Source of the DNA: Nitrospirota bacterium | GTDB lineage: Bacteria > Nitrospirota > Nitrospiria > JACQBW01 | Length of the DNA: 37,219 nucleotides | Reading direction: 5' to 3' | NCBI GenBank assembly: GCA_016201875.1 | Contig: JACQBY010000134.1 | Location: forward strand, 1 to 37,219 | Shown here: positions 1-28,250 of the stretch, piece after piece | Position numbering within the stretch: position 1 is the first letter of the stretch | Layout: every line of letters begins with the position of its first letter | Position numbers and translations under genes: made by a program | The notes under the pieces: generated by a model | The model's database searches: none | The model's input: only the letters and a program-made list of their open reading frames with translations | What the model was told of the DNA's origin: nothing

Positions 1-1061
1 AGATCGACCAGCATGACATGTTCCGCCCGTTCTTTGGGATCTGCCAGAAGTTTCTTTTCAAGCATCCGGTCTTCTTCTTCGGTCGCCCCCCTTTTATAGG
101 TCCCCGCGATGGGGCGGGTCTGGACTTTTCCGCCGACCGACCGGACCAGCAGTTCCGGAGAAGAGCCTGCGATCTTTAAATCTTTTAACTTCAGATAAAA
201 CATATAAGGGGAAGGATTGACCTGCCTTAACGAACGGTATAGATCAAACGGATCAACCGAAAGAGTCTTTGAAATTCTCTGGGAAATCTGAACCTGGAAA
301 ATATCCCCGGTCTTGATAAATCCTTTGGCGGCCTGGACACTCTTTAAGAATTCTTCTTTGGGGGTTTCGTAAACCAGTTTTGCGGACAAACCGCGAAGTG
401 CGGAAGACTCTTTTTTTCGAGTTTTTTTGATCTTCAGAGGTTTTTGCATGAGCTGAATAATCTGATCGATCTTTTTGACCGCCCGGTCGTATGCTTTTTT
501 GGGGGCGGACAACCCGTTCCGCACTCCGTTTGATTCAACCCGGGCATTTGAAATCACCTTGATCCGGTGATTGATATGGTCAAAGACCAAAAGGGTGTCG
601 GTGATCAGAAAAAAAAGGTCGGGGACTTTAAGCGGATCGGGAAGCCGGTCGGGGACTTTTTCCATAAAACGGACGGCGTCGTAGCTCATATATCCCACCG
701 CCCCTCCATGGAACGGGGGTATTCCTTCGGTCACCGCCGGCTTAAAAGAGGCCATGATCTCCTGCAATTTCTTAAGGGGATCGGAGACATTCCGGAGAAC
801 CTCTTTTTTCCCTTCGCGGATGAGGGTCACGGTCTTTCCCTTGCTCTGGAAGACCAGAAGAGGGCGGCTCCCCATAAAGGAGTAGCGGCCGATCTTTTCT
901 CCCTGTTCAACGCTTTCGAGAAGATAGGAGTAATCTCCCTGGTCGATTTTTAAAAAAGCGGTGACCGGGGTTTCAAAATCGGCGAGGATCTCTCTGTAAA
1001 CGGGGATTAAATTCCCCTCTTTTGCTTTTTGCTCGAATTCTTTAAAAGCGGGATAATACAC
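1..1061 (-). CDS. trpE: Anthranilate synthase component I, 3'-truncated by window edge (not in ORF track)
   Basis: Manual translation from GTG at 1061: YYPAFKEF..NLIPVYREILADFETPVTAFLKI..YLLESVEQGEKIGRYSF..GDIFQVQISQR..NPSPYMF..GSSPELLV..TRPIAGT..KERAEHVMLVDL; frame open to position 1. Confidence 0.93.
   Translation of the reverse strand, partial: MYYPAFKEFEQKAKEGNLIPVYREILADFETPVTAFLKIDQGDYSYLLESVEQGEKIGRYSFMGSRPLLVFQSKGKTVTLIREGKKEVLRNVSDPLKKLQEIMASFKPAVTEGIPPFHGGAVGYMSYDAVRFMEKVPDRLPDPLKVPDLFFLITDTLLVFDHINHRIKVISNARVESNGVRNGLSAPKKAYDRAVKKIDQIIQLMQKPLKIKKTRKKESSALRGLSAKLVYETPKEEFLKSVQAAKGFIKTGDIFQVQISQRISKTLSVDPFDLYRSLRQVNPSPYMFYLKLKDLKIAGSSPELLVRSVGGKVQTRPIAGTYKRGATEEEDRMLEKKLLADPKERAEHVMLVD
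382..405. repeat. Family A palindromic repeat (S+L' modules) inside trpE, read as SALRGLSA
   Basis: gcggacaaaccg-cgaagtgcggaa. Confidence 0.9.
505..528. repeat. Family A repeat (S+L) inside trpE, read as GVRNGLSA
   Basis: gcggacaacccg-ttccgcactccg. Confidence 0.9.
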
Positions 1062-1070
1062 AATAATCTA

Positions 1071-1146
1071 TTTATATTCAGGGGCCTTCGTAAACTGCAC
1101 TCAATGCCCCCGAACCCCATGCTCGGCCAGGCAAAGCCTGATCCTC
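1071..1146. repeat. Family B structured repeat immediately upstream of trpE
   Basis: 75/76 identical to 28251-28326; related to 7945-8028 and to the ends of 6087-6244. Confidence 0.92.
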
Positions 1147-1223
1147 TGATTTAAAATGGTCATGAAATCAATGAAATATCATAACAGATTTATTTTTTAA
1201 ATGGAATAGACGTTTGGGGGAGA

Positions 1224-2696
1224 TCAAGAGGAAAATCGCAAATACCAGGAGGGGCTTTGAAAGACAAGCGTTCCTTCCGGTTTTTGGATCGCTTGCGCGG
1301 AACGGGTTGTCCGCGACAGAGTCATCCGGTAATCGACGGTAATGGCAGCTCCTTCCCGTTTGATTTGCTGAAACTCCATGTTGATTTCGCGGGAATCGCG
1401 GAACATCTCCTGGAATCTCTCCCTCGCGGACAAACCGTTCCGCACTTCGCCGGGAGGAGACAACCGGATCTCTTTTTCTATGGCGCCAAGGTCCTTTTGT
1501 TCGACGTTTCTTTTAAACTCCATGAGAAACGCTTCCAATTCATGGTCATCAAGTATTAGCGGAGGTCCGACCTGGGGAGGAGAGTGAGCCTCTTTTTCTT
1601 TTTTCAAAAATACAATTTCAATTGGCAGACAACCCGTTCTGCACTTCGGCGGAACATCGGTATTTATCAGAGCTGACGGTTCATGCGAAGTGCGGAGCGG
1701 GTTGTCCGCAACCTCTTGAATGACCGGCTGTTTATGAGATTGAACCCTTTCTATGCGAGGGGGATCAAATATTTTTCCGATCAAAAATAAAACAACCATA
1801 AAGGCCAGGCCGAAAGCCAGGATCATCCTCCTTTCACCAGACAAAGTGCGTCCGCACGGTTTGTCCGCTCGAACTTGATCCAGTAAGGTTTGGACATCAG
1901 GGAAACGGCGCGACGGCTCCTTTTCAACTAATTTTCGGATGACCGATTGAAAGTACGGAGGGATTTCAGGAGGAAAGGTTAATGAAAACGGATGCGTCTC
2001 GTAAACGATCTTCCCCCAGACTACGGCTTTTCCCATCCCATTAAAAAAACTCTTCCCGTGGATAAGGGTATAAAAAATCATTCCGAGCGAATATAAATCA
2101 CTCCTCCCGTCCGGCGGTTCCCCCCTGACCTGTTCCGGGGAGATATACTCGAGCGTTCCGAGCGGACCGGTCAGAGGAGCGGTGATTTGAAGGTCTCCTT
2201 GAATGGAGGCAATCCCAAAATCAGAGAGATAAGGCTTGCCGGCATGAGAGATCAAAATGTTTTCAGGTTTTAAATCAAGATGGAAAATATTTTTTTGATG
2301 GAGATACGCCAGAGCGGAGGAGATCTCCAGAAAAAGAGAGAGAAACCGTTCAAAAGAGGAGGGACCATTTGCAATGAGCCACTCTTTTAAATTCACCCCT
2401 TCGATATAGTCCATGACAATGGCGGACAAACCGTTCCGCACTTCGCCATACCCATCAATCCCCCGGGACGAAATCGGTTGGAAAGCGATAAACGAAACGA
2501 TATGGGGGTGCTTTAAAAGGGATAGGCTGAGCGCTTCTTTTTGAATCAGTTTTTGATAGCGGGGGTCCGCCGCAAGCTGAGGATGGAGTTTTTTGACGGC
2601 GAGCCAGCGGTTGGCGCCGGGGGACCAGGCTTTGTAGACAATCCCCATGCCGCCCCTGCCGATTTCTTCGAATTGTTCGAGTGGCCCGAAATCCAT
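1224..2696 (-). CDS. Membrane-anchored Hanks-type Ser/Thr protein kinase (non-RD), carrying six family A inserts
   Basis: IGRGGMGIVY, AVK, HLDLKPEN, DFG, GTLEYISPEQ, SDLYSLG motifs; TM segment MILAFGLAFMVVLFLIG. Confidence 0.93.
   Translation of the reverse strand: MDFGPLEQFEEIGRGGMGIVYKAWSPGANRWLAVKKLHPQLAADPRYQKLIQKEALSLSLLKHPHIVSFIAFQPISSRGIDGYGEVRNGLSAIVMDYIEGVNLKEWLIANGPSSFERFLSLFLEISSALAYLHQKNIFHLDLKPENILISHAGKPYLSDFGIASIQGDLQITAPLTGPLGTLEYISPEQVRGEPPDGRSDLYSLGMIFYTLIHGKSFFNGMGKAVVWGKIVYETHPFSLTFPPEIPPYFQSVIRKLVEKEPSRRFPDVQTLLDQVRADKPCGRTLSGERRMILAFGLAFMVVLFLIGKIFDPPRIERVQSHKQPVIQEVADNPLRTSHEPSALINTDVPPKCRTGCLPIEIVFLKKEKEAHSPPQVGPPLILDDHELEAFLMEFKRNVEQKDLGAIEKEIRLSPPGEVRNGLSARERFQEMFRDSREINMEFQQIKREGAAITVDYRMTLSRTTRSAQAIQKPEGTLVFQSPSWYLRFSS
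1285..1314. repeat. Family A repeat variant inside kinase (RTTRSAQAI)
   Basis: tggatcgcttgcgcggaa-cgggttgtccgc; 1283-1306 is the exact reverse complement of 3491-3514. Confidence 0.85.
1426..1449. repeat. Family A repeat (S+L) inside kinase (EVRNGLSA)
   Basis: gcggacaaaccg-ttccgcacttcg. Confidence 0.93.
1625..1648. repeat. Family A repeat (S+L variant) inside kinase (KCRTGCL)
   Basis: gcagacaacccg-ttctgcacttcg, identical to 5233-5256. Confidence 0.9.
1686..1709. repeat. Family A repeat (L'+S') inside kinase (ADNPLRTS)
   Basis: cgaagtgcggag-cgggttgtccgc, inverted relative to 1625-1648. Confidence 0.88.
1844..1868. repeat. Degenerate family A repeat inside kinase (ADKPCGRT)
   Basis: aagtgcgtccgca-cggtttgtccgc (intact S' module). 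Confidence 0.75.
2422..2445. repeat. Family A repeat (S+L) inside the kinase catalytic domain (EVRNGLSA)
   Basis: gcggacaaaccg-ttccgcacttcg, identical to 1426-1449. Confidence 0.93.
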
Positions 2697-2705
2697 CCGG
2701 TTCCG

Positions 2706-3590
2706 TTAAAAGAGCTGTAAAAAGCGTAAAATCAACGGTTCAAAAATCAATATAAAGACGGCAGGGAAAATACACCCTAAAAGGGGGATCAGCATTTTAA
2801 CCGGCATCTGGTAGGCCCGTTTTTCGGCCAGCTGGAACCTTTTGGTTTTGATTTCCTCCGAGAGCTGGCGAAGCGCCGCCGAGAGGGGGCTTCCGATCTG
2901 ATCGGTTTGAATAAAAACCAGAATCAGCGAATGGACTTCCGGAAGGTTGATCCGGTTTGAGAACTCCCGCCAGGCGTCTGACCGGCTTTTCCCCATCCGG
3001 ACCTGCCGGACCATCGTCTCCAGTTCTTCTTTGAGAGGGCCCGGTTTAGAATTTTCCATGACTCTGGCCAATACCGTTAAATAATCGAGCCCCGCTTCAA
3101 CTCCTAACGTCATCAAATCGAGATAATAAGAGAGGTCCTTCACCATATTTTTTTGTCTCGCCTCGACGGCGCTCAACAAGAAAAGGAGGGGAAAAACCAG
3201 ACCGATGATAAAAAAGAGACTCAAAAGGAGAAGCATGAAACTAAAGACGGGCCATCGGTTTTTAAAAAAAAGGATTCCGGCCAGCGCCAGTATTATCGCC
3301 GCACCGCCGGATAAGAGCTGGAGGGAGATAAATCTCCCAGGGGCCATCGTCCAGCGGGCGGTAATCATTTTCTGTTGAAGATAAGCGAGGTAAGGTGACA
3401 ATCGAACGCGGACAAACCGCGAAGTGTAGAACGGTTTGTCCGCCGAAGTGCGGACGCGGACAACCCGTTCCGCACTTCGCGGTTTGTCCGCCCGTTCCGC
3501 GCAAGCGATCCAAAGGCCGGAAGGTCGGAACAAATGATGAGCCGCCCAGGCGGCCGAAATGAAAACTAAAAGATTGATGAAGAGAGTCAA
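2706..3590 (-). CDS. tadC: Tad pilus inner-membrane platform protein TadC (T2SSF family)
   Basis: LDLMTLGVEAGL..GPLKEEL..RMGKSRSDA..QTDQIGSPLSAALR..KRFQLAEKRAYQMPVKMLIPL..IFP pattern. Confidence 0.88.
   Translation of the reverse strand: MTLFINLLVFISAAWAAHHLFRPSGLWIACAERADKPRSAERVVRVRTSADKPFYTSRFVRVRLSPYLAYLQQKMITARWTMAPGRFISLQLLSGGAAIILALAGILFFKNRWPVFSFMLLLLSLFFIIGLVFPLLFLLSAVEARQKNMVKDLSYYLDLMTLGVEAGLDYLTVLARVMENSKPGPLKEELETMVRQVRMGKSRSDAWREFSNRINLPEVHSLILVFIQTDQIGSPLSAALRQLSEEIKTKRFQLAEKRAYQMPVKMLIPLLGCIFPAVFILIFEPLILRFLQLF
3408..3514. repeat. Compound family A array inside tadC: two inverted 36-bp palindromes, a 12-bp linker and a tail
   Basis: 3408-3443 gcggacaaaccg-cgaagtgtagaa-cggtttgtccgc; 3444-3455 cgaagtgcggac; 3456-3491 gcggacaacccg-ttccgcacttcg-cggtttgtccgc. 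Confidence 0.93.
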
Positions 3591-3648
3591 GAGTTAATCC
3601 TCGCCGCCCCGTTCCCTGACCGGTCGCCGGGTGCGCTCCTCGACCCCA

Positions 3649-4323
3649 TCACTGCGTCACCTCGAAAATCATTGGAGCCTCAGCCTCATCTCCGTTCGGA
3701 TTGCGGATCACCACAGCATAGCTCTCTTTCAAAGGCGCCGGCCGGGCCGGAACCGTCCCAAAGTTGTATTTGGCAGTATTGTTGGCTCCTGATTTATAAG
3801 GAGATAACGTATATTGAGCCGCCGAAGTCGTACTCTTTAACACCATCACCGCGTTCTTATCAAAATTCGTACCGTAAGCCTGAATCGTTGCCCCCCCGGG
3901 GCCGTTCGCCGGAGTAAATGAACTGACGGTCATCGTGATCTTGAAAACCGCCGAAGCAACCGCCTCATCTCCATTCTGATTACGGATCACAACAGCATAG
4001 TTTCCCTTTAACGGCGCCGGTTGCACAGGCACCGTCCCCATGTTGAAAATGGGGGTATTGTAGGTCCCTGAATTATAAGGAAATAACGTATATTGAGCCG
4101 CCGAAGTCGTGCTCCTCAACACCATCACAGCCGTCGAATCAAAATTCGCGCCATTAGCCTGAAAAGTTGTCCCCCCCGGGCCGCCCGCCGGGGTGAATGA
4201 ACTGATGGTTGGAGTTGCGGCCTCTGCTTTGCCAAAAGGAAACAGAGTTAAAAAAACAATCCCGGTGAAAATCAGAAAGAAATTAAACTGTTTTGCCTGT
4301 TTGGCTTCCATCTCTATCTCCAA
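3649..4323 (-). CDS. Secreted protein with two tandem IPT/TIG-like Ig repeats
   Basis: Signal peptide ending AEA; two ~85-aa repeats (SSFTPAxGPGGxTxQAxGxNFD...YAVVIRNxNGDEA). Confidence 0.75.
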   Translation of the reverse strand: MEIEMEAKQAKQFNFFLIFTGIVFLTLFPFGKAEAATPTISSFTPAGGPGGTTFQANGANFDSTAVMVLRSTTSAAQYTLFPYNSGTYNTPIFNMGTVPVQPAPLKGNYAVVIRNQNGDEAVASAVFKITMTVSSFTPANGPGGATIQAYGTNFDKNAVMVLKSTTSAAQYTLSPYKSGANNTAKYNFGTVPARPAPLKESYAVVIRNPNGDEAEAPMIFEVTQ

Positions 4324-4349
4324 AATTTCCGGATGAATATCGCCGGGAA

Positions 4350-5300
4350 TTAAACCTCGCCGCTCTCCACGATTTTTTTAATCAGCCAGAAGCCGGAAAT
4401 CTCCAGCAAAAAAATCGCCAGCAACCCCGCTCCGCCGGCGGGGGTCGTCCAGAAAGGGGTCATTAAAGCCGGGTCGATTAAAAAAAGGATTGCGCCAAGA
4501 ATTAACGGAAGAATTCCGACGACCAACCCCTGCATCTTCCCCTGAGCCGTTAAAGCATTGATCTTCCCCTTGAGACGGGTTCTCTCTTCGATCGTCTCCT
4601 CCAGACGTTCAAGGACCGGGGTCAACGATCCCCCTGCATCGTTGGATAAAATCATCGCAGAGACCATCAGGCTCAGGTCTTCTAACCCGAGCCGGTGATC
4701 GAGATATTTAAGGCTCTCTTCAAAACTCTCCCCCATTTTTATCTTTTTTAAAACAAGACCGAGTTCATGGGAAATCGGAGGCGGAATTTCTCTCACCGCC
4801 TGCTTGATCGCCTCTGAAAGGCTCAACCCCGCACGAAGAGATCCGGACATCATCTTGAGAAGGTCGGGAATCTGCCGTTCGATCTTCTCAAGCCTTTTCC
4901 GGGAGAAAAACCGGATCGCTAATTTTGGAAGATGATAGCCTGCCGCGCCAAAGAGGAGAACCGCCAGAACGAACCCGCTCCAGGAGTCATCCATTCCGAC
5001 AACCGATCCGATGAGAATAAAAATACAAGTTGAAAGGAGATGAATCATTCCGGCCTGACGGGGGGTCAAAAAGAGGAATTGTTCGTCGAGCGAAGAGAGG
5101 GTTTCCCTGATGACTTTTGCCCTGTACCGGCGGTAACCCGGAAGGAGGCTGTTTCCTATCGAATAGATTCCGATTGAAACCCCGGAGAAAACCGCCAGAG
5201 AAATGGCGGCGGACAACCCGTTCCGCACTTCGGCAGACAACCCGTTCTGCACTTCGTTGGGAACAATGCCATAAAGGATGAAGTCAGCGAAGAGCGTCAT
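4350..5300 (-). CDS. tadB: Tad pilus inner-membrane platform protein TadB (T2SSF family)
   Basis: QIPDLLKMMSGSLRAGLSL..PISHEL..GGSLTPVLERLEETIEER..KINALTAQGKMQG..LP pattern. Confidence 0.88.
   Translation of the reverse strand: MTLFADFILYGIVPNEVQNGLSAEVRNGLSAAISLAVFSGVSIGIYSIGNSLLPGYRRYRAKVIRETLSSLDEQFLFLTPRQAGMIHLLSTCIFILIGSVVGMDDSWSGFVLAVLLFGAAGYHLPKLAIRFFSRKRLEKIERQIPDLLKMMSGSLRAGLSLSEAIKQAVREIPPPISHELGLVLKKIKMGESFEESLKYLDHRLGLEDLSLMVSAMILSNDAGGSLTPVLERLEETIEERTRLKGKINALTAQGKMQGLVVGILPLILGAILFLIDPALMTPFWTTPAGGAGLLAIFLLEISGFWLIKKIVESGEV
5209..5256. repeat. Tandem pair of 24-bp family A units inside tadB (EVQNGLSA-EVRNGLSA)
   Basis: gcggacaacccgttccgcacttcg + gcagacaacccgttctgcacttcg. Confidence 0.93.
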
Positions 5301-5638
5301 TTAGCCGTAGAGGTTTTTTTCTTTTTCTTTTTGGTATCGGTTTTTTTTGTGGTTGTTTTTTTAGGGGCCGGTTTTTTCTTAAGGGTCTCGATCTCTTTTT
5401 TCAGAGATTTATTTTCCTCTTCGAGCGCCGTCATTTTTTGCTTCGCCTGCTCGCTTTCTTTTCTTAACAGCTCCAGATCAGTCTGCACCCCTTTGTTCTC
5501 TTCCGACATCTTTTCAAATTGCTGTTTCAGCTTTACATTTTCTTCTTTTAATTTTTTTGCTTCACATCCCGACAACATCGGGATCAATACCAATAAAAAT
5601 AAAACACCCAACAGTGGTTTAAATGATTTAAATCTCAT
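5297..5638 (-). CDS. Small lipoprotein with coiled coil and Lys-rich tail
   Basis: Lipobox LSGC after hydrophobic stretch; heptad-like E/K/L region; 4-bp overlap with tadB start. Confidence 0.75.
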   Translation of the reverse strand: MRFKSFKPLLGVLFLLVLIPMLSGCEAKKLKEENVKLKQQFEKMSEENKGVQTDLELLRKESEQAKQKMTALEEENKSLKKEIETLKKKPAPKKTTTKKTDTKKKKKKTSTAK

Positions 5639-5714
5639 CCTCAGTCCTTTCTTGGAATTTAATCAAAGTTTTTTAGATTTTTGCATAAAACCAAACTTTT
5701 ATCAATACATCCTC

Positions 5715-5750
5715 AAAAAAAAAGCACGGTATCTCTACCGTGCTTTTTTT
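5715..5750 (-). terminator. Intrinsic terminator (bidirectional architecture) after the 75-aa gene
   Basis: aaaaaaagcacggta-tctc-taccgtgcttttttt perfect stem with A/T tracts on both sides. Confidence 0.85.
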
Positions 5751-5813
5751 GCTGTAACTGTCTTCGCCGGATAACCGGGGGTCTTAATGGCCATTTTATG
5801 GCCACCAGAAAAA

Positions 5814-6041: not shown

Positions 6042-6086
6042 TCTGTTTCACCCCCCCTCTTTTTATAATTTTAAGCCCGGATCATT

Positions 6087-6244: not shown

Positions 6245-6270
6245 AACCGCGCAAATTTATCCATGATATA

Positions 6271-6338: not shown

Positions 6339-6439
6339 AGAAATATTTACGTTAATTTTTTGATTGGCATAGAGTCGTGGATGTCTGTAATGAGGATATC
6401 AATACCTCAAAAAAGGCATTCACAAATCATTAAAAATTT

Positions 6440-7810: not shown

Positions 7811-9402
7811 TTCTGGTTTACGGCATCCCTGGCGGACAAACCGTTCCGCACTTCGCGGGTTGTCCGCTTCTGCACTCCGTCTAAAAAAAGCGGCGATTCA
7901 TATCTCACCGGAAGGGTCAACACAACTTTCGTTCCCTTCCCCTCTATTATGTTCAGGGGCCTGTTCGCTGCGCTCTCATTGCCCCCGAACCCCTCGCTCG
8001 AACTGGCAAAGCCAGATCCTCGCTCTATCTCCGAGCTGATCTCAATTTTACCATGGTGTTCTTCGATGATCCTTTTGGTCAATGCAAGGCCGAGGCCGAT
8101 CCCGAGCTGTTTTGTCGTAAAATAAGGCTGAAAAACTTTTTTTAAATCGTCGGGGCTGATCCCCGGCCCGTTATCGATAATTTCGAGAACCACAAAAGAA
8201 GGGTCCGGTCGGAGCGCCCGGATCGCCAGTTTTCCGCCGGTCGGCATCGCCTGAATCCCGTTTGCGACGATATTCATCAGGCAGGTTTTGATCCTTTCGC
8301 TATCTCCTTCGATCAGGGGGATCTCTCCGGGCACATATTCGATTTCAACCCCCTGTTCGATCGCTTTTTGATTCGCCAGACTGATCACCTCTTTTAATAA
8401 GAGGTTCAGGTTCATCCATTCTATTTGAAGCCTTAACGGCCGTCCATACTTTAAAATATCCTCCACCATATTGTTCAGCCGGAAAATTTCCGATTTAATG
8501 CTCGACATCAGGTCGGACATTCTCTCCTTTTCGTCGGGCGATGCACGACCCGCTTTTTCTTTAAGATGATCGATACTCAGGGAGATGAAATTGAGCGGGT
8601 TTCTGATTTCATGGGCGATCCCCGAAGCGAGCTGGCCGAGCGCGGTAAAATGTTCGGTCTCCCGGAGCCTCTCTTCGAGCGCTTTATTCTGCCTTAGTTT
8701 TTCAACCATTTCGTTAAAGCTTTCGGTCAGCTCGTTGATTTCATCGTTTCCTTTATGGACCGGTATCGTCTGGCTCAAATCTCCGCTGGCGACTTTTTTG
8801 GCGGCCGCCATGATCTGGTAAATGGGCCGGGTATACCGCGAGGAGAGAAAGATCGAAACGATAATCCCGAGAGAAAAGACTACTAATGTGGCGGCCAGGC
8901 GGTTCAGGTAATGCGATTCGATCAGTTTTTCATAATCGTCAAAAATCATGCTGATATGGGCATACCCCAGCTGTTCTCCCTCGACGACGATGGGGACAAG
9001 GAGATTGTAGGCTTTCTGGGTAGGCGACGGGAGCTGATCCCCTAATTTTGCGGTGATCAGCAGATCTTTTCTTTTAGGATCGAGTCTGGCTCCCACCCGA
9101 TGGGGATTTGAGCTGGCGATCACCTCTTTTTCATTGCTGACGATCGATATCTCTTTCACCCCCCTCGTTTCAAGCCTCTTCACATAATCCTGAAGTCGTT
9201 TTTCGGTCGTTCGTTCGGGGCTGGTCAGCTCTTCAACGCTCACCGAAATCGCGTTGGATAACTCATTGATATTCTGCTCCATTTCTTGTACCAGGGCTTT
9301 TTCTGTCCGGGCATAAAGATAAAAAGAGACGCCGAGGGATAGAAACGACAGAAGGAGCATGATCAGGACGAGTTTTGCGGTCAGAGTCAGTCTGATCTTC
9401 AA
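7807..9402 (-). CDS. HAMP-domain sensor histidine kinase; probable start TTG at 9402; carries family A and B inserts
   Basis: Two TM helices, HAMP, AHEIRNPL H-box, N-box, DNGPGI, FQPYFTTK, GIGLGL; TTGA overlap with the tsaC stop; the longer ORF-track N-terminus overlaps tsaC. Confidence 0.92.
   Translation of the reverse strand: MKIRLTLTAKLVLIMLLLSFLSLGVSFYLYARTEKALVQEMEQNINELSNAISVSVEELTSPERTTEKRLQDYVKRLETRGVKEISIVSNEKEVIASSNPHRVGARLDPKRKDLLITAKLGDQLPSPTQKAYNLLVPIVVEGEQLGYAHISMIFDDYEKLIESHYLNRLAATLVVFSLGIIVSIFLSSRYTRPIYQIMAAAKKVASGDLSQTIPVHKGNDEINELTESFNEMVEKLRQNKALEERLRETEHFTALGQLASGIAHEIRNPLNFISLSIDHLKEKAGRASPDEKERMSDLMSSIKSEIFRLNNMVEDILKYGRPLRLQIEWMNLNLLLKEVISLANQKAIEQGVEIEYVPGEIPLIEGDSERIKTCLMNIVANGIQAMPTGGKLAIRALRPDPSFVVLEIIDNGPGISPDDLKKVFQPYFTTKQLGIGLGLALTKRIIEEHHGKIEISSEIERGSGFASSSEGFGGNESAANRPLNIIEGKGTKVVLTLPVRYESPLFLDGVQKRTTREVRNGLSARDAVNQK
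7832..7879. repeat. Family A full 36-bp palindrome plus extra L module in the kinase C-terminal tail (GVQKRTTREVRNGLSA)
   Basis: gcggacaaaccg-ttccgcacttcg-cgggttgtccgc-ttctgcactccg. Confidence 0.93.
7945..8028. repeat. Family B repeat inserted in frame (28 aa) in the HATPase domain
   Basis: ttcaggggcc..gcccccgaacccc..ctggcaaagccagatcctc matches 1071-1146; removal restores HGKIEISSE-EGKGTKVVLTLP. Confidence 0.88.
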
Positions 9403-10040
9403 TAGATTTTTTCCAACGAAGTGCGGACGAAGTGCGGAACGATTTTTCCCGGCCTTAATATTTTTATTTCTTCGCCGGTCACATCGACCACCGTGGAGGG
9501 TTCGGATTCTAAAGCTCCGCCATCCAGGATTAAATCGACCTGTTTTCCAAAAACCTTTTCGGCTTCCCGGGCATTTCTGCAGGGAAATCCGGCTGACAGG
9601 TTGGCGCTGGTAGCCGTCACCGGGAAGCCGGCAAAAGATAAGAGCCGCCGGACCATTGCCGAACCGGGGCACCGGATTCCGATTTTTCCGCTGTGGGCGG
9701 TTAACCGGGTAGAAATCTTTTCAGAAGCCTCAAAAACAAAAGTAACAGGGCCGGGCCAGTACTGTTTGATCAGCTTTGCCGCGGCGGGGGAAACATTTTT
9801 AACCAGAGGGAAGATATCCTCAGGCTTTTCGACCAGGATGAGAACCGGCTTTTGGCTCTCCCTCTTTTTAATCTCGAACAGTTTTTCAATCGCCGCTTCA
9901 TGGTAGATGCCGGCGCCGATGCCGTAGAGGGTGTCGGTCGGGTAGATGATGATTTTCCCCTCGCCAAGGAGGCCGGCTCCCTTTTTCAGCGCAGGATCAG
10001 GATCATTAAAATCTATTTTAACGATTTTTGTTTTTGTCAT
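9399..10040 (-). CDS. tsaC: L-threonylcarbamoyladenylate synthase (Sua5/YrdC)
   Basis: YPTDTLYGIG, KKR..KPV, WPGPVT, IGIRCP, ATSANLS, PSTVVD, ILRPG. Confidence 0.93.
   Translation of the reverse strand: MTKTKIVKIDFNDPDPALKKGAGLLGEGKIIIYPTDTLYGIGAGIYHEAAIEKLFEIKKRESQKPVLILVEKPEDIFPLVKNVSPAAAKLIKQYWPGPVTFVFEASEKISTRLTAHSGKIGIRCPGSAMVRRLLSFAGFPVTATSANLSAGFPCRNAREAEKVFGKQVDLILDGGALESEPSTVVDVTGEEIKILRPGKIVPHFVRTSLEKIY
9417..9441. repeat. Family A loop-module doublet in the tsaC 3' end (VPHFVRTS)
   Basis: cgaagtgcgga-cgaagtgcggaa-cg. Confidence 0.8.
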
Positions 10041-10689: not shown

Positions 10690-11580
10690 TCAATTACACC
10701 CCTTTTCCCAAACCTGGGTAACCCAGTTCCCGTCAATCTTTTCATCCGCTTTTTCAAGCTTTAACAGTCCGAACGTTTTCTCCACCTCTTCTTTTTTCTC
10801 CACCAGAATCCCGGAAAGAATCAGCGTCCCGCCGGGCAGAAGCGCTCCCTGAAGCTCTCTGCCTGACCGGATTAAATCTTCGGCGGTTAAATTGGCCAGA
10901 ATCAGGTGATAGCTTCGTCTGTCGGCCTGAAAAATCGACCCGAGCCTGATCCGGATTTTATCCTGAACCTGATTTAAAATAAAATTGTTCCGCATCGATT
11001 CGACCGCGTCGCCGTCTATCTCGGCCGCAACGATATATCCGGCCCCGAACAGGGATGCCCCTATCGCCAGAATCCCCGAACCCGAACCGAGGTCGAGCAC
11101 TTTTAAGGACGGCGGGTCGGGATGGGCCAACATAAACCGTTCGAGAAAAACCAGGCAATTGAACGTCGTCGGGTGGGTGCCTGTTCCAAACCCGAGTCCC
11201 GGGTCGATGATGATGTCTCTTTCTCCCTTATTTTTCCGGGAAACGGTTTGCCAGGGAGGGGCGACGGTCAGCGCGGGGGTCACGCTAACCGGTTTGAAAA
11301 ACTTTTTCCATTCCCCGTTCCAGTCCTCCTGGATATTCTTCTGGATATGGAATGATTTAGAAGGAACTTCAACCCCTTCTTCCCTAAACCGGTCGAAAAA
11401 GGGGACCATTCTTTTTTCAATCTCTTCACCGGCGCAGTCGGCGGGATTAAAAAAGGCTTTTACTTTTGCCCCATCGATCCAGGCTCCTCCTGCCCCGATT
11501 TCAATAAAAAACGACGAGAGGCTCTCCTGCAGTTGGGGCGCCACCTCCAGCGACACTTCGATATATTCTTTTTCCTTCAC
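10690..11580 (-). CDS. prmA: Ribosomal protein L11 methyltransferase; probable start GTG 11580
   Basis: EDWNGEWKKFFKP, PPW, IDPGLGFGTGTHPTT, VLDLGSGSGILAI, ILANL, LILSGIL; GTGA overlap with the upstream stop. Confidence 0.93.
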   Translation of the reverse strand: MKEKEYIEVSLEVAPQLQESLSSFFIEIGAGGAWIDGAKVKAFFNPADCAGEEIEKRMVPFFDRFREEGVEVPSKSFHIQKNIQEDWNGEWKKFFKPVSVTPALTVAPPWQTVSRKNKGERDIIIDPGLGFGTGTHPTTFNCLVFLERFMLAHPDPPSLKVLDLGSGSGILAIGASLFGAGYIVAAEIDGDAVESMRNNFILNQVQDKIRIRLGSIFQADRRSYHLILANLTAEDLIRSGRELQGALLPGGTLILSGILVEKKEEVEKTFGLLKLEKADEKIDGNWVTQVWEKGCN

Positions 11581-22428: not shown

Positions 22429-25400
22429 TTAAAATGAATAATTGACCGTTAATCCCAGCGTATGTTTTTTATAACCTCCGATGGGGGCAGTTTGCTCGCT
22501 TAAGACATCATTCACATTCCGGCTAACCAGGGCAGAAAGGTTCGAAGCGACGCTTTGCCATCCTGCCGAAGCCGTCAGGGTCACATTACTGTAAAAAAAC
22601 CAGGTCACTCCGGCATTGAGGCTGACCGATTGATTTTTACGATAGAGCGCCCCCAGACCCGCCTGTAATGCCGCCGGATCGGGATTCTTATACAGGACCT
22701 GTCCATAAGCGATACTCAAAGAACCGTTATAATAATCTAAAAATTTCCGATTGTAGGTCACTCCGGCATTCCAGGAAATCTGGCTGTCATCGCTGGCCAC
22801 GACATCCCTGTTGGCCGCGCTCATCACCCAGGACAATCCGCCATAACTCTGAAGACTTTTAAAAACGGACCAGCTGACGGCCTGCTGAATGGAATTATAA
22901 AAGGGGTTGATCGCGGACACGCTGTAGGCATAACCCAGATGGGTCGTGATGGAGTCAAACCAGTTCCCTTTTGTCTGGATGTCCGCGCCGAACTGGCTGT
23001 TCCAGCCCGCAAATCCGCCGGCCTGATAACTCATTCCCATCGACGGAGAAAGGACAACCGTCAGGCCGTTTAAATCGGGCCATCTGGCCTCGAAGGAAAC
23101 GCTTTCGCCGTTAAAGAGGCGTTGATTGTCATAATAAACCGAATTTGAAACGCTCAATCCGCCTGAGAGAATCACCTTCAATGATTTATAAAAACTGTAT
23201 TTCAAGCTCAGGGCATAAACTGAATAGACTTCGGAGCTTTCAAATGCTTCACTGTTGCCGGCGTTGCTGTCGCTGCCAAAGAGCGTCGCCGAAACATTTC
23301 CGGAAACCCTCTGCTGATAATAATCAAGACGGGCCTGAAGGAGCACCCCCTCTTTAGACTTTTTATTTACCAGGTACTTTGCTCCCTTCTTGAAGTTTTC
23401 ATACGCCCCATGGAAGTCCCCCCGCCGCTCCTGGATGATTCCAAGGTAGAAATAGGGAGATGAAAAGTTGGGGCTTTTTTCTATGGCTTTTTGATAAGCG
23501 TCCGCCGCCCGATCATCGTCCTCCACCGCTTCGTAATAATTCCCAAGGTCATACCAGGTATCCCCCTCCCAGGGGACAAGTTCGGTTGCTTTCAAAAGGA
23601 GTCTGCCGGCTGTCGGGTATTCTTTTCTTTGCATCAGCAAAGCCCCGACGATAGAATAGCCTTTCGCCTCTTCGGTCCTGGTAAGCTTTGGCCTTATTTC
23701 ATCGAGTTTTTTCACCGCCTCCCTGACCTCCTCCTCTTCCGGTTTCCCGAGAGCGATGACCTGTTCATACTCGCTGAAGGCTGATTTGTAAGCCCCTGCC
23801 AGATCATAAAGGATGGCCAGCCTGTAATGGGCGGCAAAAAGATCAGGTTTCAGTTCAATCGCTCTTTTAAGCGCATATTCCCCCGATACCAGGTCGAAAT
23901 TCCGGATGTACGCAAAACCGAGATTGTAATAATAATAGGCGTTATCCCGGTTGAGGCGGATAGCCGCCTCGAACTCTGCCACCGCTTTTTGAAGCATGTT
24001 TTTTTTATCCCGGGAAACAGGAACTCCCTCTTCAGGGGGATTCTCTTTTTCCAACTGTTCCAGCGTCTGCATCGCTTCATTTCCGGATTTAAAATGCGCT
24101 TCGCTTTCGGCCTTTTGTTCTAACCCCTCCATCTCTTTTTTAGCCGTCTGAACCAGTTTCCCTTCTTTTCCCAGCAGGATCACCTTTTTCATCTCCTCGA
24201 TGCTTTCGGTATATTTTCCAACCGCTCCGAGTAAAAGACCTGATTGGAAACGGGCTTCCAGGTAATCGGGATTTATTTTTAAAAGGGCCTCCAGGTCTTT
24301 TTGAGCTTCCACCGGATTTTTTTGTTTTATTTCCACCAGAGCCAGCGCATAAAGGGCCTGAACCTGCTCCGGCACGAGACCCAGCGCTTTTTGATACGCT
24401 TCTTTGGCTTCGCTCCATTTTTCTTCTTTAAAGAGCTGATTCCCCGACCTGATATAGGAAAACAGGGCTCTGGCTTTTTCGGGAGACCCGCCCATTTGAG
24501 AAAGAAAATATTTTGCCCGCCTGCTCCATTCGCTCTCTTTTTGATCCATTTGAATCACCTCCTCGAGCAGAACAATGGCTTTTTCATATTTTTCCTGGCT
24601 CTGGTAGATTAACGCCAGATCGATTCTCGGGGAGGGGAGTTCCGGATAAAGGGCAAGGATCTGTTTGGAATAGTCCCCGGCTTTTTCTAAATCGAGGCTG
24701 GTTTCCCGGAGATAAATCTTTCCCAGACTGTCAAGCGCCTGAAGGTTTTTTGGCGAAAGGGAAAGCGCCTGAATAAACTTTTCTCTTGCGGCATCGATGT
24801 TTTCACTTTTGAGGAAGGCCCCCCCTTCGTCCAGAAGAAGCTGAATCTCAAGCGTCCTGGCAGAATCATCCCCGAACTGAGCCAACTCCCTCTCCGCCTT
24901 CGCCAGCTCCTCTTTGAATTCTTCCGGATTTCCGAGCTGATGGATCAATTCTTTCACTCTCGAAAATTCATTGAAGGCTTTTTGAACCTCTTTCTCTTTG
25001 AGATAAATCTGCCCCAGAAAAAGATGCCCGGGCACGAGCGATGGCTCTTTTGCAACCACATCGAGAAAGAGTTTCCTGGCCTCGGGCAACCTCTCTTTTT
25101 GAAAAAGGATCACCCCGAGTCCGAATTTTGCCTTGATATTTTCAGGGACACTCTTTAAAATCCCGCGGTATTCCAGTTCCGCCGCGTCAAGCTTCTTTTC
25201 TATTTCAAACAGGGAGGCCGCCTTTTTTAACCTGGAAACGATCTCAAGAGCGATCTCTTTTGTCTGGCCTGACTGCTCCATTTTTTTTCTCGCCTCAATA
25301 ACCTCCCGGAATTGCGGTGTTTTCTGACCCCGTTGAAGAATGGTCTGATACTCCTCCCAGGCCTCTCCCACCCGCTCCTCGGCCTCGTAGGCTTCTCCCA

Positions 25401-26100
25401 GCAAAAGATGGGCAAATAGAAGCCCCGGATTAATCGAAATAATCTTCTGGAGATATTTCTCCGAGGCCTCATATCGGGCCAGTTCAAATAAAAGGGTCCC
25501 CGCGTTTTCAAGCGCTTCCATCTGATCGGGCGCAAGATCAATGACCGATTGATATTCCATCAGGGCCTTCTCCCGCTCCTTTTTTTTCAGGTAAGCGCTC
25601 CCTTTTGACAGATGATCTTTGATTTTTTGAGCCTTTTCAGGGGTTTCTCCGATCTGGGTGAGGCGGAATTTTGCCGTTGCCACAAAAGACGCAAAGGCTT
25701 TGTTGACATTTTCAAGTGAAACCGTCTTTTGATAATTGAGAATGGCATTGGGAAGATCGTTTTTGAGTTCAAAAACCTCCCCTAAAAACTGGTAAGCAGG
25801 GGCATAATCGGGCTGAATGGAGATGGCGGAGCGCAAAGCCTTTTCAGACTGATCGATCAGTTGTTTCTGAAGATAAACCCGCCCCAGGCCAAAATAGGCC
25901 CTGTGGTTATTGGGATTTTTGATCAGGGCTTTTTTAAACTCCTCCAAAGCGGCATCCAGCTTTCCCTGGGATAAATATTCTGTCCCTTTTTGAGTGGGGT
26001 CTTTATCCGCGGGAGTGTCAGAAGGTGTCACAACAGGAAGATCGGGAGGGGTCTGGCCAAATAAAAATGCCGGATAAAAAGAGAAGAAAATAAAAATCAA
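22429..26100 (-). CDS. Multi-TPR protein with a C-terminal outer-membrane beta-barrel; true start may be ATT at 26193
   Basis: Many TPR-like repeats (A...LG..Y...A...Y..A..L.P); last ~300 aa are amphipathic strands ending LTVNYSF. Confidence 0.85.
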   Translation of the reverse strand: MIFIFFSFYPAFLFGQTPPDLPVVTPSDTPADKDPTQKGTEYLSQGKLDAALEEFKKALIKNPNNHRAYFGLGRVYLQKQLIDQSEKALRSAISIQPDYAPAYQFLGEVFELKNDLPNAILNYQKTVSLENVNKAFASFVATAKFRLTQIGETPEKAQKIKDHLSKGSAYLKKKEREKALMEYQSVIDLAPDQMEALENAGTLLFELARYEASEKYLQKIISINPGLLFAHLLLGEAYEAEERVGEAWEEYQTILQRGQKTPQFREVIEARKKMEQSGQTKEIALEIVSRLKKAASLFEIEKKLDAAELEYRGILKSVPENIKAKFGLGVILFQKERLPEARKLFLDVVAKEPSLVPGHLFLGQIYLKEKEVQKAFNEFSRVKELIHQLGNPEEFKEELAKAERELAQFGDDSARTLEIQLLLDEGGAFLKSENIDAAREKFIQALSLSPKNLQALDSLGKIYLRETSLDLEKAGDYSKQILALYPELPSPRIDLALIYQSQEKYEKAIVLLEEVIQMDQKESEWSRRAKYFLSQMGGSPEKARALFSYIRSGNQLFKEEKWSEAKEAYQKALGLVPEQVQALYALALVEIKQKNPVEAQKDLEALLKINPDYLEARFQSGLLLGAVGKYTESIEEMKKVILLGKEGKLVQTAKKEMEGLEQKAESEAHFKSGNEAMQTLEQLEKENPPEEGVPVSRDKKNMLQKAVAEFEAAIRLNRDNAYYYYNLGFAYIRNFDLVSGEYALKRAIELKPDLFAAHYRLAILYDLAGAYKSAFSEYEQVIALGKPEEEEVREAVKKLDEIRPKLTRTEEAKGYSIVGALLMQRKEYPTAGRLLLKATELVPWEGDTWYDLGNYYEAVEDDDRAADAYQKAIEKSPNFSSPYFYLGIIQERRGDFHGAYENFKKGAKYLVNKKSKEGVLLQARLDYYQQRVSGNVSATLFGSDSNAGNSEAFESSEVYSVYALSLKYSFYKSLKVILSGGLSVSNSVYYDNQRLFNGESVSFEARWPDLNGLTVVLSPSMGMSYQAGGFAGWNSQFGADIQTKGNWFDSITTHLGYAYSVSAINPFYNSIQQAVSWSVFKSLQSYGGLSWVMSAANRDVVASDDSQISWNAGVTYNRKFLDYYNGSLSIAYGQVLYKNPDPAALQAGLGALYRKNQSVSLNAGVTWFFYSNVTLTASAGWQSVASNLSALVSRNVNDVLSEQTAPIGGYKKHTLGLTVNYSF

Positions 26101-26252
26101 AAAAAAAGAGAGAACCTGTCCGACCCGTGGACCGGTCGATCCAAAGACCGGAGGAGAAAAATAAATCTTAATGTTCGATTTCCTGAAAATAATAAAGTTT
26201 CCTCCTGAGAGGTTCTTGAATAAAATATCCTATTTGCCTTAAAAAACAAACA

Positions 26253-26295
26253 AAAAAAAGGGAGAACCGGGCATGGTTCCCGAATTCTCCCTTTT
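26253..26295 (-). terminator. Intrinsic terminator between the 335-aa gene and the TPR gene
   Basis: aaaagggagaa..cggg..cccg..ttctccctttt stem followed on the minus strand by a U-tract. Confidence 0.78.
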
Positions 26296-26330
26296 AGGTC
26301 CTGACAACGACCTGCTAGCCTGTCACAGAT

Positions 26331-27338
26331 TTATGGAACTAAAGCCTGTGTCGCAGGATCATAGCTGCTGGCCGGGAGTCCTGGCGCAACAGGAGGAGTA
26401 TTCCCGTCAGTAACCGAAACGCTATTGTTAAACAGCTGACCGTAGGAACCGATATCAAGACCAGCTGATTGCTGACCGGCTTGATTATCACCCACAGCCT
26501 GGGCAACCGAACCGGTGTTAAAGTAATCCGGTCCACCGAACGGATCGATGTTGCCTGTCCATGTGGCATCAACAAGTCCCAAGTCGACAGCGATAGACAA
26601 ACCACCGCCTGCCACGGTTGCCTGATTCATGACCTGGAAACCAGCCGCGGGATTGAGGTTATCCGCATATTCGAACATCGCCAGTCTCTGATCGATATAA
26701 TCCGCATCCGCTGGTGAAGCAGTGTGATTCATCTGCTGGCTCAAACGGTTTCCGAAATCTAAAGGACCTTCTTCAAAGCCGCTGACAAGCGCTGTGGTAA
26801 AAGTCCCCTGATTGAAAAAGTCGGTACCGACAGGGATGGTCGCACCACCCTGAGAGTCAAGCAGAGTGACCGCGCCTGAAGGAACAAATGTGGAGCAACC
26901 ATTGTCACCGCACATTCCGAAAAGGAGCTGGTCTAACGCGTAACCCGTTGTCGAATCAGCTCCGCCGGTATACTGAGTACCTGCGTAGCTAACCTGTGTA
27001 GGAACGCTTCCAAGGCCGAATCCGGTACCGGAACCGCCCGCACCCTGATCAGCCGCAAACGTACCGGCGTTAACGGTACAGGTGTTAATTAAACCAACGT
27101 TCGGACCAGCCGGACAGGTGACATTCGGTCCAAGATTAACGCTTTTCCCGAATAATGTTCCATCCAGGTCAAGACTTGCAGATGTTGTTGTTGTGGTAGC
27201 CGCCATTGCGCCACCGGCCATGGCCAGAATAGCGACCATAGATAACATAAGTATCGATTTAAGTTTCATACTTTTCTCCTTCATGACCTTTAGGTCATTG
27301 TTAGTTTTGTTTGTTTTGTTCATTGATAATATTCGCAT
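26331..27338 (-). CDS. Secreted acidic Gly/Thr/Ala/Gln/Asn-rich protein, candidate abundant surface or fibre subunit (alternative start 27269)
   Basis: Signal peptide ..AMAGGAMA; mature region nearly devoid of Lys/Arg; two Cys pairs; strong SD at both in-frame ATGs; own terminator. Confidence 0.8.
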   Translation of the reverse strand: MRILSMNKTNKTNNDLKVMKEKSMKLKSILMLSMVAILAMAGGAMAATTTTTSASLDLDGTLFGKSVNLGPNVTCPAGPNVGLINTCTVNAGTFAADQGAGGSGTGFGLGSVPTQVSYAGTQYTGGADSTTGYALDQLLFGMCGDNGCSTFVPSGAVTLLDSQGGATIPVGTDFFNQGTFTTALVSGFEEGPLDFGNRLSQQMNHTASPADADYIDQRLAMFEYADNLNPAAGFQVMNQATVAGGGLSIAVDLGLVDATWTGNIDPFGGPDYFNTGSVAQAVGDNQAGQQSAGLDIGSYGQLFNNSVSVTDGNTPPVAPGLPASSYDPATQALVP

Positions 27339-27377
27339 TTTGTTTCACCCCCTCTCCATGCTTAGGTTCTACTTACT

Positions 27378-27411
27378 GACATTCAGAGCCGACAATTCGG
27401 CGCTGAATGTC
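27378..27411. other. Long stem-loop in the 5' leader of the 335-aa gene
   Basis: gacattcagagccga-caat-tcggcgctgaatgtc, 14/15 paired. Confidence 0.65.
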
Positions 27412-27452
27412 TTCGCCGGGTGTATCGCCACCCGAAGAAACTGATTAAACCC

Positions 27453-27545
27453 GTTGAACGGTTGAAAAGTTGAAAGGTTTAAACCCCTCGACTCATCAAC
27501 TCTTCAACTTCCTCTCAACCCATCAACTCTTCAACCTTTCAACAA
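27453..27545. repeat. Inverted pair of 8-mer tandem arrays ((gttgaann)x4 then (tcaacynn)x7)
   Basis: gttgaacg gttgaaaa gttgaaag gtttaaac ... tcgactca tcaactct tcaacttc .. tcaaccca tcaactct tcaacctt tcaac. Confidence 0.85.
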
Positions 27546-28250
27546 TCATTTCGTAGTACATCGCGAACCGGTTCCCTGGGCCGTTCCGGAGGTTAACGTA
27601 AATCCATTATCCGGATCCCAGGTATAGGTGCCGGCGCAGGTGGTTGTCTGCGTCCCTCCCGGCACAATCTCTTGCCGGGTTTGAATAAAATTCCCCGCGG
27701 CCTGGCCGATTAAATTTCCTGTCGCATCGGTCATCGAGTTGACGCCGAATTTATTGTCGAAAATATAACCCGCCGCGGCCTGATTTTGATAAATCTGGGT
27801 TTGCAATTGATTCAGCCTGCTTGTTCCGGACGCAGTCGAATTCATCCGGGTCACCACCGATTGAAAACCGGCTATCCCTGAGGTGGTGGTTGCATCCAAC
27901 AGGCCGATCTGGCTAAATCCGGAAGGGAGATCCCTTCCGAACTGGGTATCCACCGTCGTTCCGGTAATCGACCGGGGAAGGACTGTTTCGGGATGAGGGT
28001 CGGTATTGGAGGACATCTGCGCCCCGTCCATTCCCCACGGACCCGGGTCCGCCGGATTCGACGGTCCCTGCTGTAGATGCATCTGGCTGGTCCTTGAAAC
28101 CGTTGCCGTATCCGCCGCATCTGCAGAAAAAGCCAGGCTCATGGAAAGAAGAATGGCGGAAAAGAGAACTTGGCAGACAACCCGTGCGGACAACCCGTTC
28201 CGCACTTCGTCTGCACTTCGCAATTTTTTAGTTTTTAGCAATTTTATCAT
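27546..28250 (-). CDS. Secreted Gln/Thr/Gly-rich protein; probable start ATG 28250; nested family A insert in its signal peptide
   Basis: Signal peptide ..ILLSMSLAFSADA; C-terminal Cys pair; local similarity by eye to the downstream 335-aa protein. Confidence 0.75.
   Translation of the reverse strand: MIKLLKTKKLRSADEVRNGLSARVVCQVLFSAILLSMSLAFSADAADTATVSRTSQMHLQQGPSNPADPGPWGMDGAQMSSNTDPHPETVLPRSITGTTVDTQFGRDLPSGFSQIGLLDATTTSGIAGFQSVVTRMNSTASGTSRLNQLQTQIYQNQAAAGYIFDNKFGVNSMTDATGNLIGQAAGNFIQTRQEIVPGGTQTTTCAGTYTWDPDNGFTLTSGTAQGTGSRCTTK
28173..28220. repeat. Nested family A: one 24-bp unit inside another
   Basis: gcagacaacccgt[gcggacaacccgttccgcacttcg]tctgcacttcg. Confidence 0.9.

Follow-up and report, generated by a model that had tools for sequence, protein, structure and literature searches.

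Rickettsia palindromic elements (RPEs), in particular the RPE-1 type connected with the name of Ogata et al., are said to be palindromic selfish DNA of roughly 100-150 bp that lies in frame in functional genes and has no known transposase. Insertion sequences (IS) of the IS200/IS605 group move by the IS608-type mechanism of single-strand transposition, and the mobile GC clusters or hairpin elements of fungal mitochondria are short GC-rich palindromes that spread in the genome and sometimes enter coding sequence. Most known families of repetitive extragenic palindromes (REPs) are, to our knowledge, extragenic and offer few clean empty sites. REPs of 20-40 nt inside open reading frames (ORFs) of known proteins have nevertheless been described in Opitutus terrae, Rickettsia conorii (RPE-4 and RPE-6), Thauera and others (Di Nocera et al. 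2013, PMC3733652); the text of that paper places most REPs in intergenic DNA and argues that the intragenic ones occupy linkers or loops. It also describes GTAG- or CGTC-tagged REPs as single, dimeric or grouped, with subfamilies distinguished by complementary stem residues, G-T pairs included. Here we analyse a repeat of 24 nt, named U, in a stretch of 37,219 nucleotides ("the window"), which is contig JACQBY010000134.1 of the Nitrospirota assembly GCA_016201875.1 (contig C169 of this genome, named G000; 1.88 Mb in 200 contigs, 83% complete, 48% G+C). Its genus is represented by one further genome, named G001, which is 90% complete. We consider U to belong to a family of mobile hairpin repeats, very short, non-autonomous and confined to one genus, that would be moved on single-stranded DNA by a trans-acting enzyme, a reading to which we give a probability of roughly 55%.

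Like the RPEs, U is a palindromic insertion that lies in frame in genes which remain open and conserved, but it is 24 nt long and found in a free-living, uncultured lineage of Nitrospiria, whereas RPE-1 is longer and found in Rickettsia. The likeness to the fungal mitochondrial GC clusters is drawn from their description, and these belong to another compartment and lineage. As a short imperfect palindrome (24 nt, 5-bp stem) repeated genome-wide, U falls within the 20-40 nt range of REPs, and because intragenic 20-40 nt REPs (PMC3733652) and the longer RPE-1 elements are in print, this kind of element is already known. The first-pass annotation of the window, made from its sequence, had not recognised a described family; this holds for the sequence family, which matched nothing outside one genus, but not for the class of short intragenic palindromes. 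Compared with the REPs as presented in the text of Di Nocera et al., U is likewise a 20-40 nt stem-loop that occurs single, dimeric or grouped, has stem-compensating subfamilies with G-T pairs and lies in linkers or loops, whereas it lacks a GTAG or CGTC tag on either strand of its consensus and is genic at the background rate rather than mostly intergenic. The features specific to the family are the missing tag, the mostly genic location, a unit of exactly eight codons and nesting in itself and in other hairpins; self-nesting in the loop and the exact eight-codon unit are not described in the text of PMC3733652, whose supplementary list of intragenic REPs may hold comparable units. REPIN-RAYT systems, as portrayed in the text of Bertels and Rainey (2011, PMC3116915), resemble U in their short hairpins, inverted doublets that fold into long structures (in U at one locus, 3408-3491), vertical inheritance and lack of autonomy; they differ in that no RAYT gene is flanked by U and in that the copies of U number tens, not hundreds, and are genic. 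A miniature inverted-repeat transposable element, defined as a 70-300 bp element with terminal inverted repeats of 15-30 bp (PMC3733652), was rejected, as the whole unit has 24 nt and no target-site duplication. The same was done with a CRISPR array (the copies are dispersed or abutting, with no spacers) and with readings of the repeat as a terminator or a protein motif.

Thirteen loci of the window had been pointed out as being built from two 12-mers, S (GCGGACAAMCCG) and L (TTCYGCACTTCG), and all 13 were found to hold S and/or L. With up to one mismatch S was matched 18 times in the window against 0.43 expected, a number reached by none of 100 shuffles; L was matched 17 times against 0.30 expected, and again none of 100 shuffles reached this number. 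Eleven of the loci are multi-module, whereas 1285 is a truncated element of another family (B, described below) and 1844 a degenerate remnant. The full unit had been thought to be a 36-nt S-L-S' hairpin, which is found at three places only (3408-3443, 3456-3491 and 7832-7867); what recurs is the 24-nt S-L block that we call U. It reads GCGGA-CAAACCGT-TCCGC-ACTTCG, i.e. a 5-bp stem GCGGA/TCCGC closing an 8-nt loop and followed by a 6-nt tail, with the consensus GCGGACAACCCGTTCCGCACTTCG from 34 aligned copies of the two genomes. A single unit folds at -4.7 kcal/mol (z -2.2 against shuffles). A subfamily, U2, has the stem GCAGA/TCTGC, a compensatory pair relative to U, and G-T intermediates are present. 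As claimed earlier, the consensus has no stop triplet, on either strand, and thus gives eight sense codons in every frame; this property alone is unremarkable, being shared by 17.7% of 20,000 random genomic 24-mers.

The gain of whole units was followed mainly by pairwise alignment, over about 12 kb, of window positions 1-12100 with the syntenic contigs C105 and C4 of G001 (75-93% identity). Inserts present only in the window were found at 1426 and 1686 (24 nt each), 5209 (48 nt), 7832 (24 nt more than in G001), 382 (21 nt) and 1275 (33 nt); conversely, G001 alone has 24-nt inserts, at 1758/59 and around 11433. The units at 505 and 1625 are common to both, and at 3408 and 9417 the modules are differently arranged. 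The boundaries are base-exact at 1426, 1686 and 1758 as well as at the hairpins named D below. Duplicated flanks were seen neither at 1426, where the exact 24-nt empty site in G001 reads CCCTT^CCGGAAGG, nor at 1686 nor in the empty and filled pairs of D hairpins, and at 1758 there is a one-base G ambiguity. All indels within conserved genes are multiples of 3. Stepwise growth was visible at orthologous sites, with three units on contig C90 and two at C192:9377, each against one in G001.

A third lineage was provided by contigs of X5, a run of another study, which are roughly 93-95% identical to the window. At 7832 the three lineages show three states, namely 48 nt in the window, 24 nt in G001 and none in X5, where 7826 joins 7875 (48 skipped, side 149). 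One X5 contig omits 24 bases at 2421, that is, the unit at 2422, close to which G001 bears instead a composite of families C and B (both described below), 11 nt off. X5 also has 3 additional bases (TTC) at 393, within locus 382, and 11 additional bases at 3443, within locus 3408, where G001 has two tandem U units. Polarity was obtained from the outgroup proteins of G002-G005. The insert at 382 is missing from TrpE of G001-G004; the 8 residues at 505 are absent from TrpE of G002, G003 and G004 and confined to the two congeners; the insert at 1426 is missing from G002 and G004, and the loop that contains 2422 is short in the same two genomes. The inserts at 382, 505, 1426 and 2422 are thus derived relative to the outgroups as far as these proteins align. 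By these alignments, whole 24-nt units are shown to be gained, and perhaps lost, with no target-site duplication, and the earlier proposal of a short mobile palindrome is borne out by empty and filled sites in both directions between the two congeners and in the third lineage. Around 26118 and 28173 the G001 orthologue of window 25300-28900 is too diverged for empty-site calls.

The loci were also compared with Logan contigs of runs X1 and X2, which come from the likely source study and a different assembler. These contigs reproduce the loci, the records having 0-3 other letters, with 3 gap letters over 3408-3485, and neither the X1 nor the X2 population showed variation at a 10% share. In the mapping of reads and contigs, several loci were left uncovered by X6 and by parts of X5. 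Apparent rearrangements that join distant U loci (e.g. 528 to 9435) were rejected, as they are cross-matches of the repeat. An assembly, adapter or chimera artefact is suggested by the fragmented state of the 200-contig assembly; it is excluded by the reproduction of the loci in an independent assembly (X1/X2) and in other lineages (X5, and the second species with the same units in frame and with reciprocal differences), and indels that are all multiples of 3 in conserved genes likewise speak against it, so that its probability is negligible.

For the analysis of targets, 21 independent sites in unique sequence were inferred from both genomes. CCGG lies directly 3' of the unit at 6 of the 21 (1.08% at random; binomial p 7.5e-8), and GG is found at +3/+4 at 12 of them (7.6% at random). 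Since the empty site of G001 at 1426 keeps its CCGG, these bases are part of the target and not of the element. U itself starts with five bases similar to the favoured flank, (C/G)CGGA. A preference for landing just 5' of CCGG(A) in unique sequence is shown by these inferred sites.

Units are arranged singly, in tandem (5209, C192:9377; SLSL), inverted (the 3408-3491 palindrome) or nested (S^n L^n), and neighbouring copies are mixed sequence variants. S2L2 nesting is seen at window position 28173, on C90 and at C69:5610, and the deepest nesting, S5L5, at C69:5214-5333, where 120 nt or 40 codons lie inside an FGE-sulfatase domain. Each nesting step adds 13 + 11 = 24 nt, and because a lone slippage of 13 or 11 nt breaks the frame, it is simpler to suppose that whole units were inserted centrally. 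The DNA fold reaches -47.5 kcal/mol (z -8.3) for 3408-3530 and -12.4 kcal/mol (z -4.4) for the nested pair at 28173. Two further families are related. Family C is a palindrome with a 34-nt core in the conservation profile, which is not a multiple of 3, and family B, with a 58-nt core, is family C with a U-like 24-mer at its centre; at 4 loci U itself lies inside the loop of this U-like 24-mer. By sequence, the hairpin families U, B and C are related and form a nested set, of which U is the smallest member. U was also found in the 5-nt loop of an unrelated hairpin, D (CCCCTCCCTTGA^TGGGAGGGG), of which the same genome has empty copies, including a paralogue with identical flanks. The copies of U in the loops of other hairpins are mostly outside long ORFs. 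The comparison of empty and filled sites shows that exactly 24 nt are gained, that certain sequences are preferred at unique sites and that units land in hairpin loops, those of U included. In G001, copies of family C are often paired 25 nt apart (contigs C1, C5, C7, C32 and C2), a spacing that suggests tandem units which overlap or have been partly deleted.

The hosts named by the first-pass annotation were confirmed: in the window these are TrpE, a Ser/Thr kinase (Pkinase), two T2SSF proteins, a histidine kinase, TsaC (Sua5_yciO_yrdC, 9399-10040) and a secreted protein, which has 244 aa and a signal peptide and matches no Pfam family. Elsewhere units were found in genes for an FGE-sulfatase protein, an EamA transporter, PEP carboxylase, a radical-SAM/BATS (biotin-synthase-like) protein, SMC, a TPR protein, PutA and a SpoU methylase. 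All six reading frames are in use, as had been stated, the commonest reading being (E/G)VRNGLSA (505, 1426, 2422, twice at 5209, 7832, 28173 and C69:5610). The inserts occupy length-variable loops, inter-domain linkers, a signal-peptide n-region and terminal tails, in agreement with the suggestion that short peptides are grafted into such parts of real genes. A structure model of the kinase was poor overall (mean pLDDT 47.2, pTM 0.28, 4 sequences), and only its C-terminal domain was used (10-residue blocks at 71-87); there the pLDDT falls to 51 at 411-420 and to 49 at 461-470 (463-470), and of these predicted dips the first coincides in part with the U insert (about residues 417-424) and the second with the B insert (about 461-474). 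For the histidine kinase, the long ORF (7807-9672) extends about 90 codons further upstream than the start conserved among its orthologues, into the 3' end of tsaC (9399-9672). From this comparison the true start is probably near 9400, in which case locus 9417 would be read in tsaC rather than in the kinase.

That every locus lies in a gene is true of the window, but genome-wide 5 of the 25 multi-module loci are outside long ORFs. By a crude test, in which the longest stop-to-stop frame spanning a locus had to reach at least 150 codons, 20 of the 25 were genic as compared to 84.5% of 3000 random sites, so that the supposed preference for coding DNA was not found and U is tolerated in genes rather than attracted to them. 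The commonest repeats of G000 are classical REP-like hairpins, namely CGTCATTCCCGCGAAAGCGGGAAT (CGTC-REP, CGTC-tagged, 102 copies) and CATTCCCGTGCAAACGGGAATC (REP2, 50 copies), the latter with a consensus that also has no stop triplet. Among single units, those in long ORFs were 21 of 27 for U, 10 of 13 for B and 17 of 20 for C, as against 12 of 102 for CGTC-REP and 9 of 50 for REP2. At least 40 codons from both ORF ends were 13 of 27, 9 of 13 and 9 of 20, respectively, as against 4 of 102 and 0 of 50, with 66% for random sites. Both of these classical REP-like families are excluded from the genes of their genome.

With up to two mismatches the 24-mer of U occurs 27 times in G000 and 12 times in G001, i.e. 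in 2 of 41 related genomes and in one genus; none of the 39 remaining genomes, from the same family and class, contained it, and controls with the reversed pattern gave 0. Among 185,579 species genomes (GTDB, one each) it was found on three contigs of one Nitrospiria metagenome-assembled genome only, and no match was obtained in JGI metagenome contigs or in two scans of viral contigs. Families B and C have 13 and 20 copies in G000 and 20 and 66 in G001, with single 2-mismatch matches elsewhere; one match of the family-C core in the JGI metagenomes, on a TARA scaffold, was taken as chance and not used. The same exact 24-mer of U is present on at least 14 contigs, in unrelated genes. Copies are also strongly clustered, 10 of the 27 in G000 lying within window positions 505-7855 (7.4 kb) and 7 of the 12 in G001 within the syntenic stretch. 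Two paralogous genes of G001 carry U at the same position (C26:95-118 and C105:7633-7656), which implies insertion before duplication or conversion between the paralogues.

According to the mechanism that we favour, the agent would be a trans-acting HUH/Y1 transposase, most plausibly of the RAYT/TIRYT kind as proposed for REPs. Units would be moved as single-stranded DNA, and the loops of a folded strand, which remain single-stranded, would serve as targets. Whatever the agent, landing just 5' of CCGG(A) or in the loop of an existing hairpin gives rise to tandem, nested and inverted arrays. As every event brings 8 stop-free codons, insertions survive where proteins are tolerant, and genic occupancy is for this reason at the background rate. 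Movement of the HUH type is favoured because U is a hairpin with short tails, leaves no duplication and has a target, TCCGG^ on the other strand, that resembles its own 3' end, TCCGC, a similarity which would also yield tandem arrays. These are the traits that U shares with IS200/IS605 elements; it differs from them in encoding no transposase and in a target rule seen at no more than the six sites given above. We know of no IS end pair that comes near to being as short as 24 nt.

A mobilising enzyme was recognised neither by the first-pass annotation nor by us in the window. G000 has six diverged Y1_Tnp (HUH) genes of 290-345 codons, on C50, C187, C38, C119, C56 and C62, each bounded by its own inverted repeats starting GGGGTCA, which fit the motif GGGGWSAS described for "TIRYT" genes (PMC3733652). 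It had been suggested that HUH/Y1 or reverse-transcriptase genes flanked by the repeat should be looked for, and none was found among the Y1_Tnp genes checked, all six in G000 and two of five in G001. Matches to the families RVT_1, IS110 DEDD and TnpB zinc-ribbon were absent from both G000 and G001. As these genomes are 83% and 90% complete, a repeat-linked Y1 gene could be in the unassembled part.

Several observations weigh against the favoured reading. The motifs S, L, B and C are absent within 2 kb of all six Y1_Tnp genes of G000, apart from one chance-level L-like 12-mer with 2 mismatches near the C187 gene, and the two of five Y1_Tnp genes checked in G001 are not flanked by the repeats either; similar Y1 genes are present in G002 and G003, both of which have no U. 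Genes between copies of U, B and C are housekeeping genes, none of them transposase-like, with no recombinase at the copies examined. The carriers amount to two incomplete genomes and one metagenomic lineage, and where the outgroup does not align, a gain is indistinguishable from a precise loss. The fold of a single unit beats shuffles only modestly, and the covariation of the stem is not significant (values as high as those observed were found in 53 or 222 of 500 shuffles); with 16 distinct sequences, one compensatory type, which is a single event, and three G-T intermediates, covariation was rejected as stand-alone evidence for the 5-bp stem. The CCGG rule does not hold at the other 15 of the 21 unique sites, and the C69 array has CCGG on the opposite side. 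A palindromic target in unique sequence was rejected (best inverted-repeat arm at the 21 sites versus 20,000 random sites, Mann-Whitney p 0.09; arms of at least 4 at 3 of 21 versus 12%), and because it is not significant, loop targeting is claimed only for four hairpin repeat families. The orientation of units matches the sign of the local GC skew at 16 of 24 loci, which are clustered and lie on short contigs. Finally, clustering is not predicted by a simple trans-acting transposase, and the hotspot, which in both species is conserved and still active, is better suited to local copying.

This clustering, which continues independently in both species, is the strength of the foremost competing explanation, in which units are copied at hairpins with no enzyme of their own, by template switching, fold-back synthesis or break repair using nearby copies, so that arrays grow locally and no transposon is involved. 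Half-units and inverted modules (S+L- at 382, L-L- at 9417, the 84-nt palindrome at 3408), insertion into hairpin loops and the failure to find an enzyme would all be expected from such copying, and a flank similar to the first five bases of the unit suits microhomology. We nevertheless regard it as unlikely, since the presence of the exact 24-mer on at least 14 contigs in unrelated genes requires a template in trans and the boundaries are exact to the base. Moreover, the stems of the targeted hairpins D and C have no homology to U, the mixed variants among neighbours give no sign of local homogenisation, and S^n L^n would need two coordinated slippages per step in place of one central insertion. 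Movement by some other site- or structure-specific recombinase, e.g. a tyrosine or serine enzyme acting as integron integrases do on attC, would account equally for the use of hairpin loops in four repeat families and for the missing duplication, and its gene could lie in the unassembled part of the incomplete genomes; it is improbable, as no recombinase gene stands beside any copy examined and nothing points to one, and 24 nt is much shorter than any recombination cassette known to us. Still less probable is that the repeat is kept for a host function, as a protein-binding site, an mRNA structure that paces translation or a peptide linker, and has been spread by selection. The prevalence of the (E/G)VRNGLSA frame, the fixation of several units in both species and the absence of variation in the X1 and X2 populations are in line with a function; against it stand the use of all six frames with some copies probably untranslated, the unrelated hosts (TrpE, PEP carboxylase, SMC, PutA and others) and the difference in presence between close relatives at most sites, and a function would not by itself explain exact copies at new sites.

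We thus retain a trans-acting enzyme working on single-stranded DNA as the preferred account. A bolder version, which we hold to be doubtful, would make U the smallest mobile DNA yet seen, copied into hairpin loops (as fractal S^n L^n) and beside CCGG by a TIRYT-type HUH enzyme in trans or by an undescribed process, and acting as an in-frame peptide-insertion mutator in a conserved signalling and Tad-pilus hotspot. The family offers exact 24-nt pairs of empty and filled sites in both directions between close relatives and stepwise growth from 0 to 24 to 48 nt at single sites, together with a measurable target preference, self-nesting and an internal control in the classical REPs that stay outside genes in the same genome. 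It makes hypotheses on the mechanism, HUH activity on hairpin single-stranded DNA versus template switching, testable and touches on two old questions, i.e. how REP-like repeats multiply and how selfish DNA becomes translated in working proteins. The length of an element and its freedom from stops decide whether a repeat can live inside genes, and with its eight readable codons U is an unusually clear case of selfish DNA lengthening working proteins. It is also a practical warning to those who annotate such lineages or align their protein families.

Table 1. Repeat units, related elements and empty sites located in the window.
Position	Strand	Feature	Observation
382..405	+	S+ L- block ("V" arrangement), trpE	codes SSALRGLSA
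505..528	+	U, trpE	codes GVRNGLSA; shared by G000 and G001
1275..1317	-	truncated family-B element (left arm of palindrome C + U-like 24-mer), kinase C-terminal domain	33-nt indel vs G001
1426..1449	+	U, kinase gene	codes EVRNGLSA
1625..1648	+	U2 unit (GCAGA...TCTGC), kinase gene	codes KCRTGC; diverged copy at same site of G001
1686..1709	-	U, reverse orientation, kinase gene	codes ADNPLRTS; exact 24-nt empty site in G001 (TTTCATG^AACTT)
1758..1759	.	empty site in window, 24-nt U in G001	window GCGAG^GGGGATC; G001 CTGAG[24 nt]GGGGTTC
1844..1868	-	degenerate remnant, partial L- then S-	region unalignable with G001
2422..2445	+	U, kinase N-lobe loop	codes EVRNGLSA
3408..3491	.	seven modules S+ L- S- L- S+ L+ S-, 84-nt near-perfect palindrome, T2SSF (tadC-like) gene	module matches and fold
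3492..3522	+	right part of family-B element, abuts the 3408 palindrome	family-B match
5209..5256	+	tandem U + U2 near N-terminus, T2SSF (tadB-like) gene	codes NEVQNGLSAEVRNGLSA; all 48 nt missing in G001
7832..7879	+	U with inverted 24-mer (L+ S-) at centre, histidine kinase C-terminal tail	three lineage states
9417..9439	-	two L modules (11 + 12 nt), TsaC C-terminal tail	code VPHFVRTS; other module arrangement in G001
11430..11436 (about 11433)	.	approximate empty site, prmA; U-like 24-mer in G001	alignment loose around gap
26118..26153	-	family C copy (34-nt core palindrome, in family B interrupted by the U-like 24-mer)	family-C match
28173..28220	+	nested pair, U between CCGT and TCTGC of U2 (S S L L), signal-peptide n-region of 244-aa protein	module matches

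The window also holds another repeat family, about 80 nt in length (TTCAGGGGCC ... CCCCCGAACCCC ... GGCAAAGCC.GATCCTC). At 7948-8026 it contributes 28 residues in frame inside the HATPase_c domain of the histidine kinase, where it is also present in G001 and missing from G002-G005. It is also found at 1068-1146 and 6085-6260, in both cases outside long ORFs, and the read depth is high over the stretches concerned. Between the two T2SSF genes, a gene for a TIG/IPT-domain protein (3649-4323; region 3593-4350) is missing in G001, and contigs of X5 and X6 skip 756 nt; on the basis of these alignments it is an indel specific to the lineage of the window. The sole Rfam match in the window is a c-di-GMP-I riboswitch (RF01051, 53.1 bits) at 35339-35452 on the minus strand, upstream of an ORF of 1717 codons (30088-35241).

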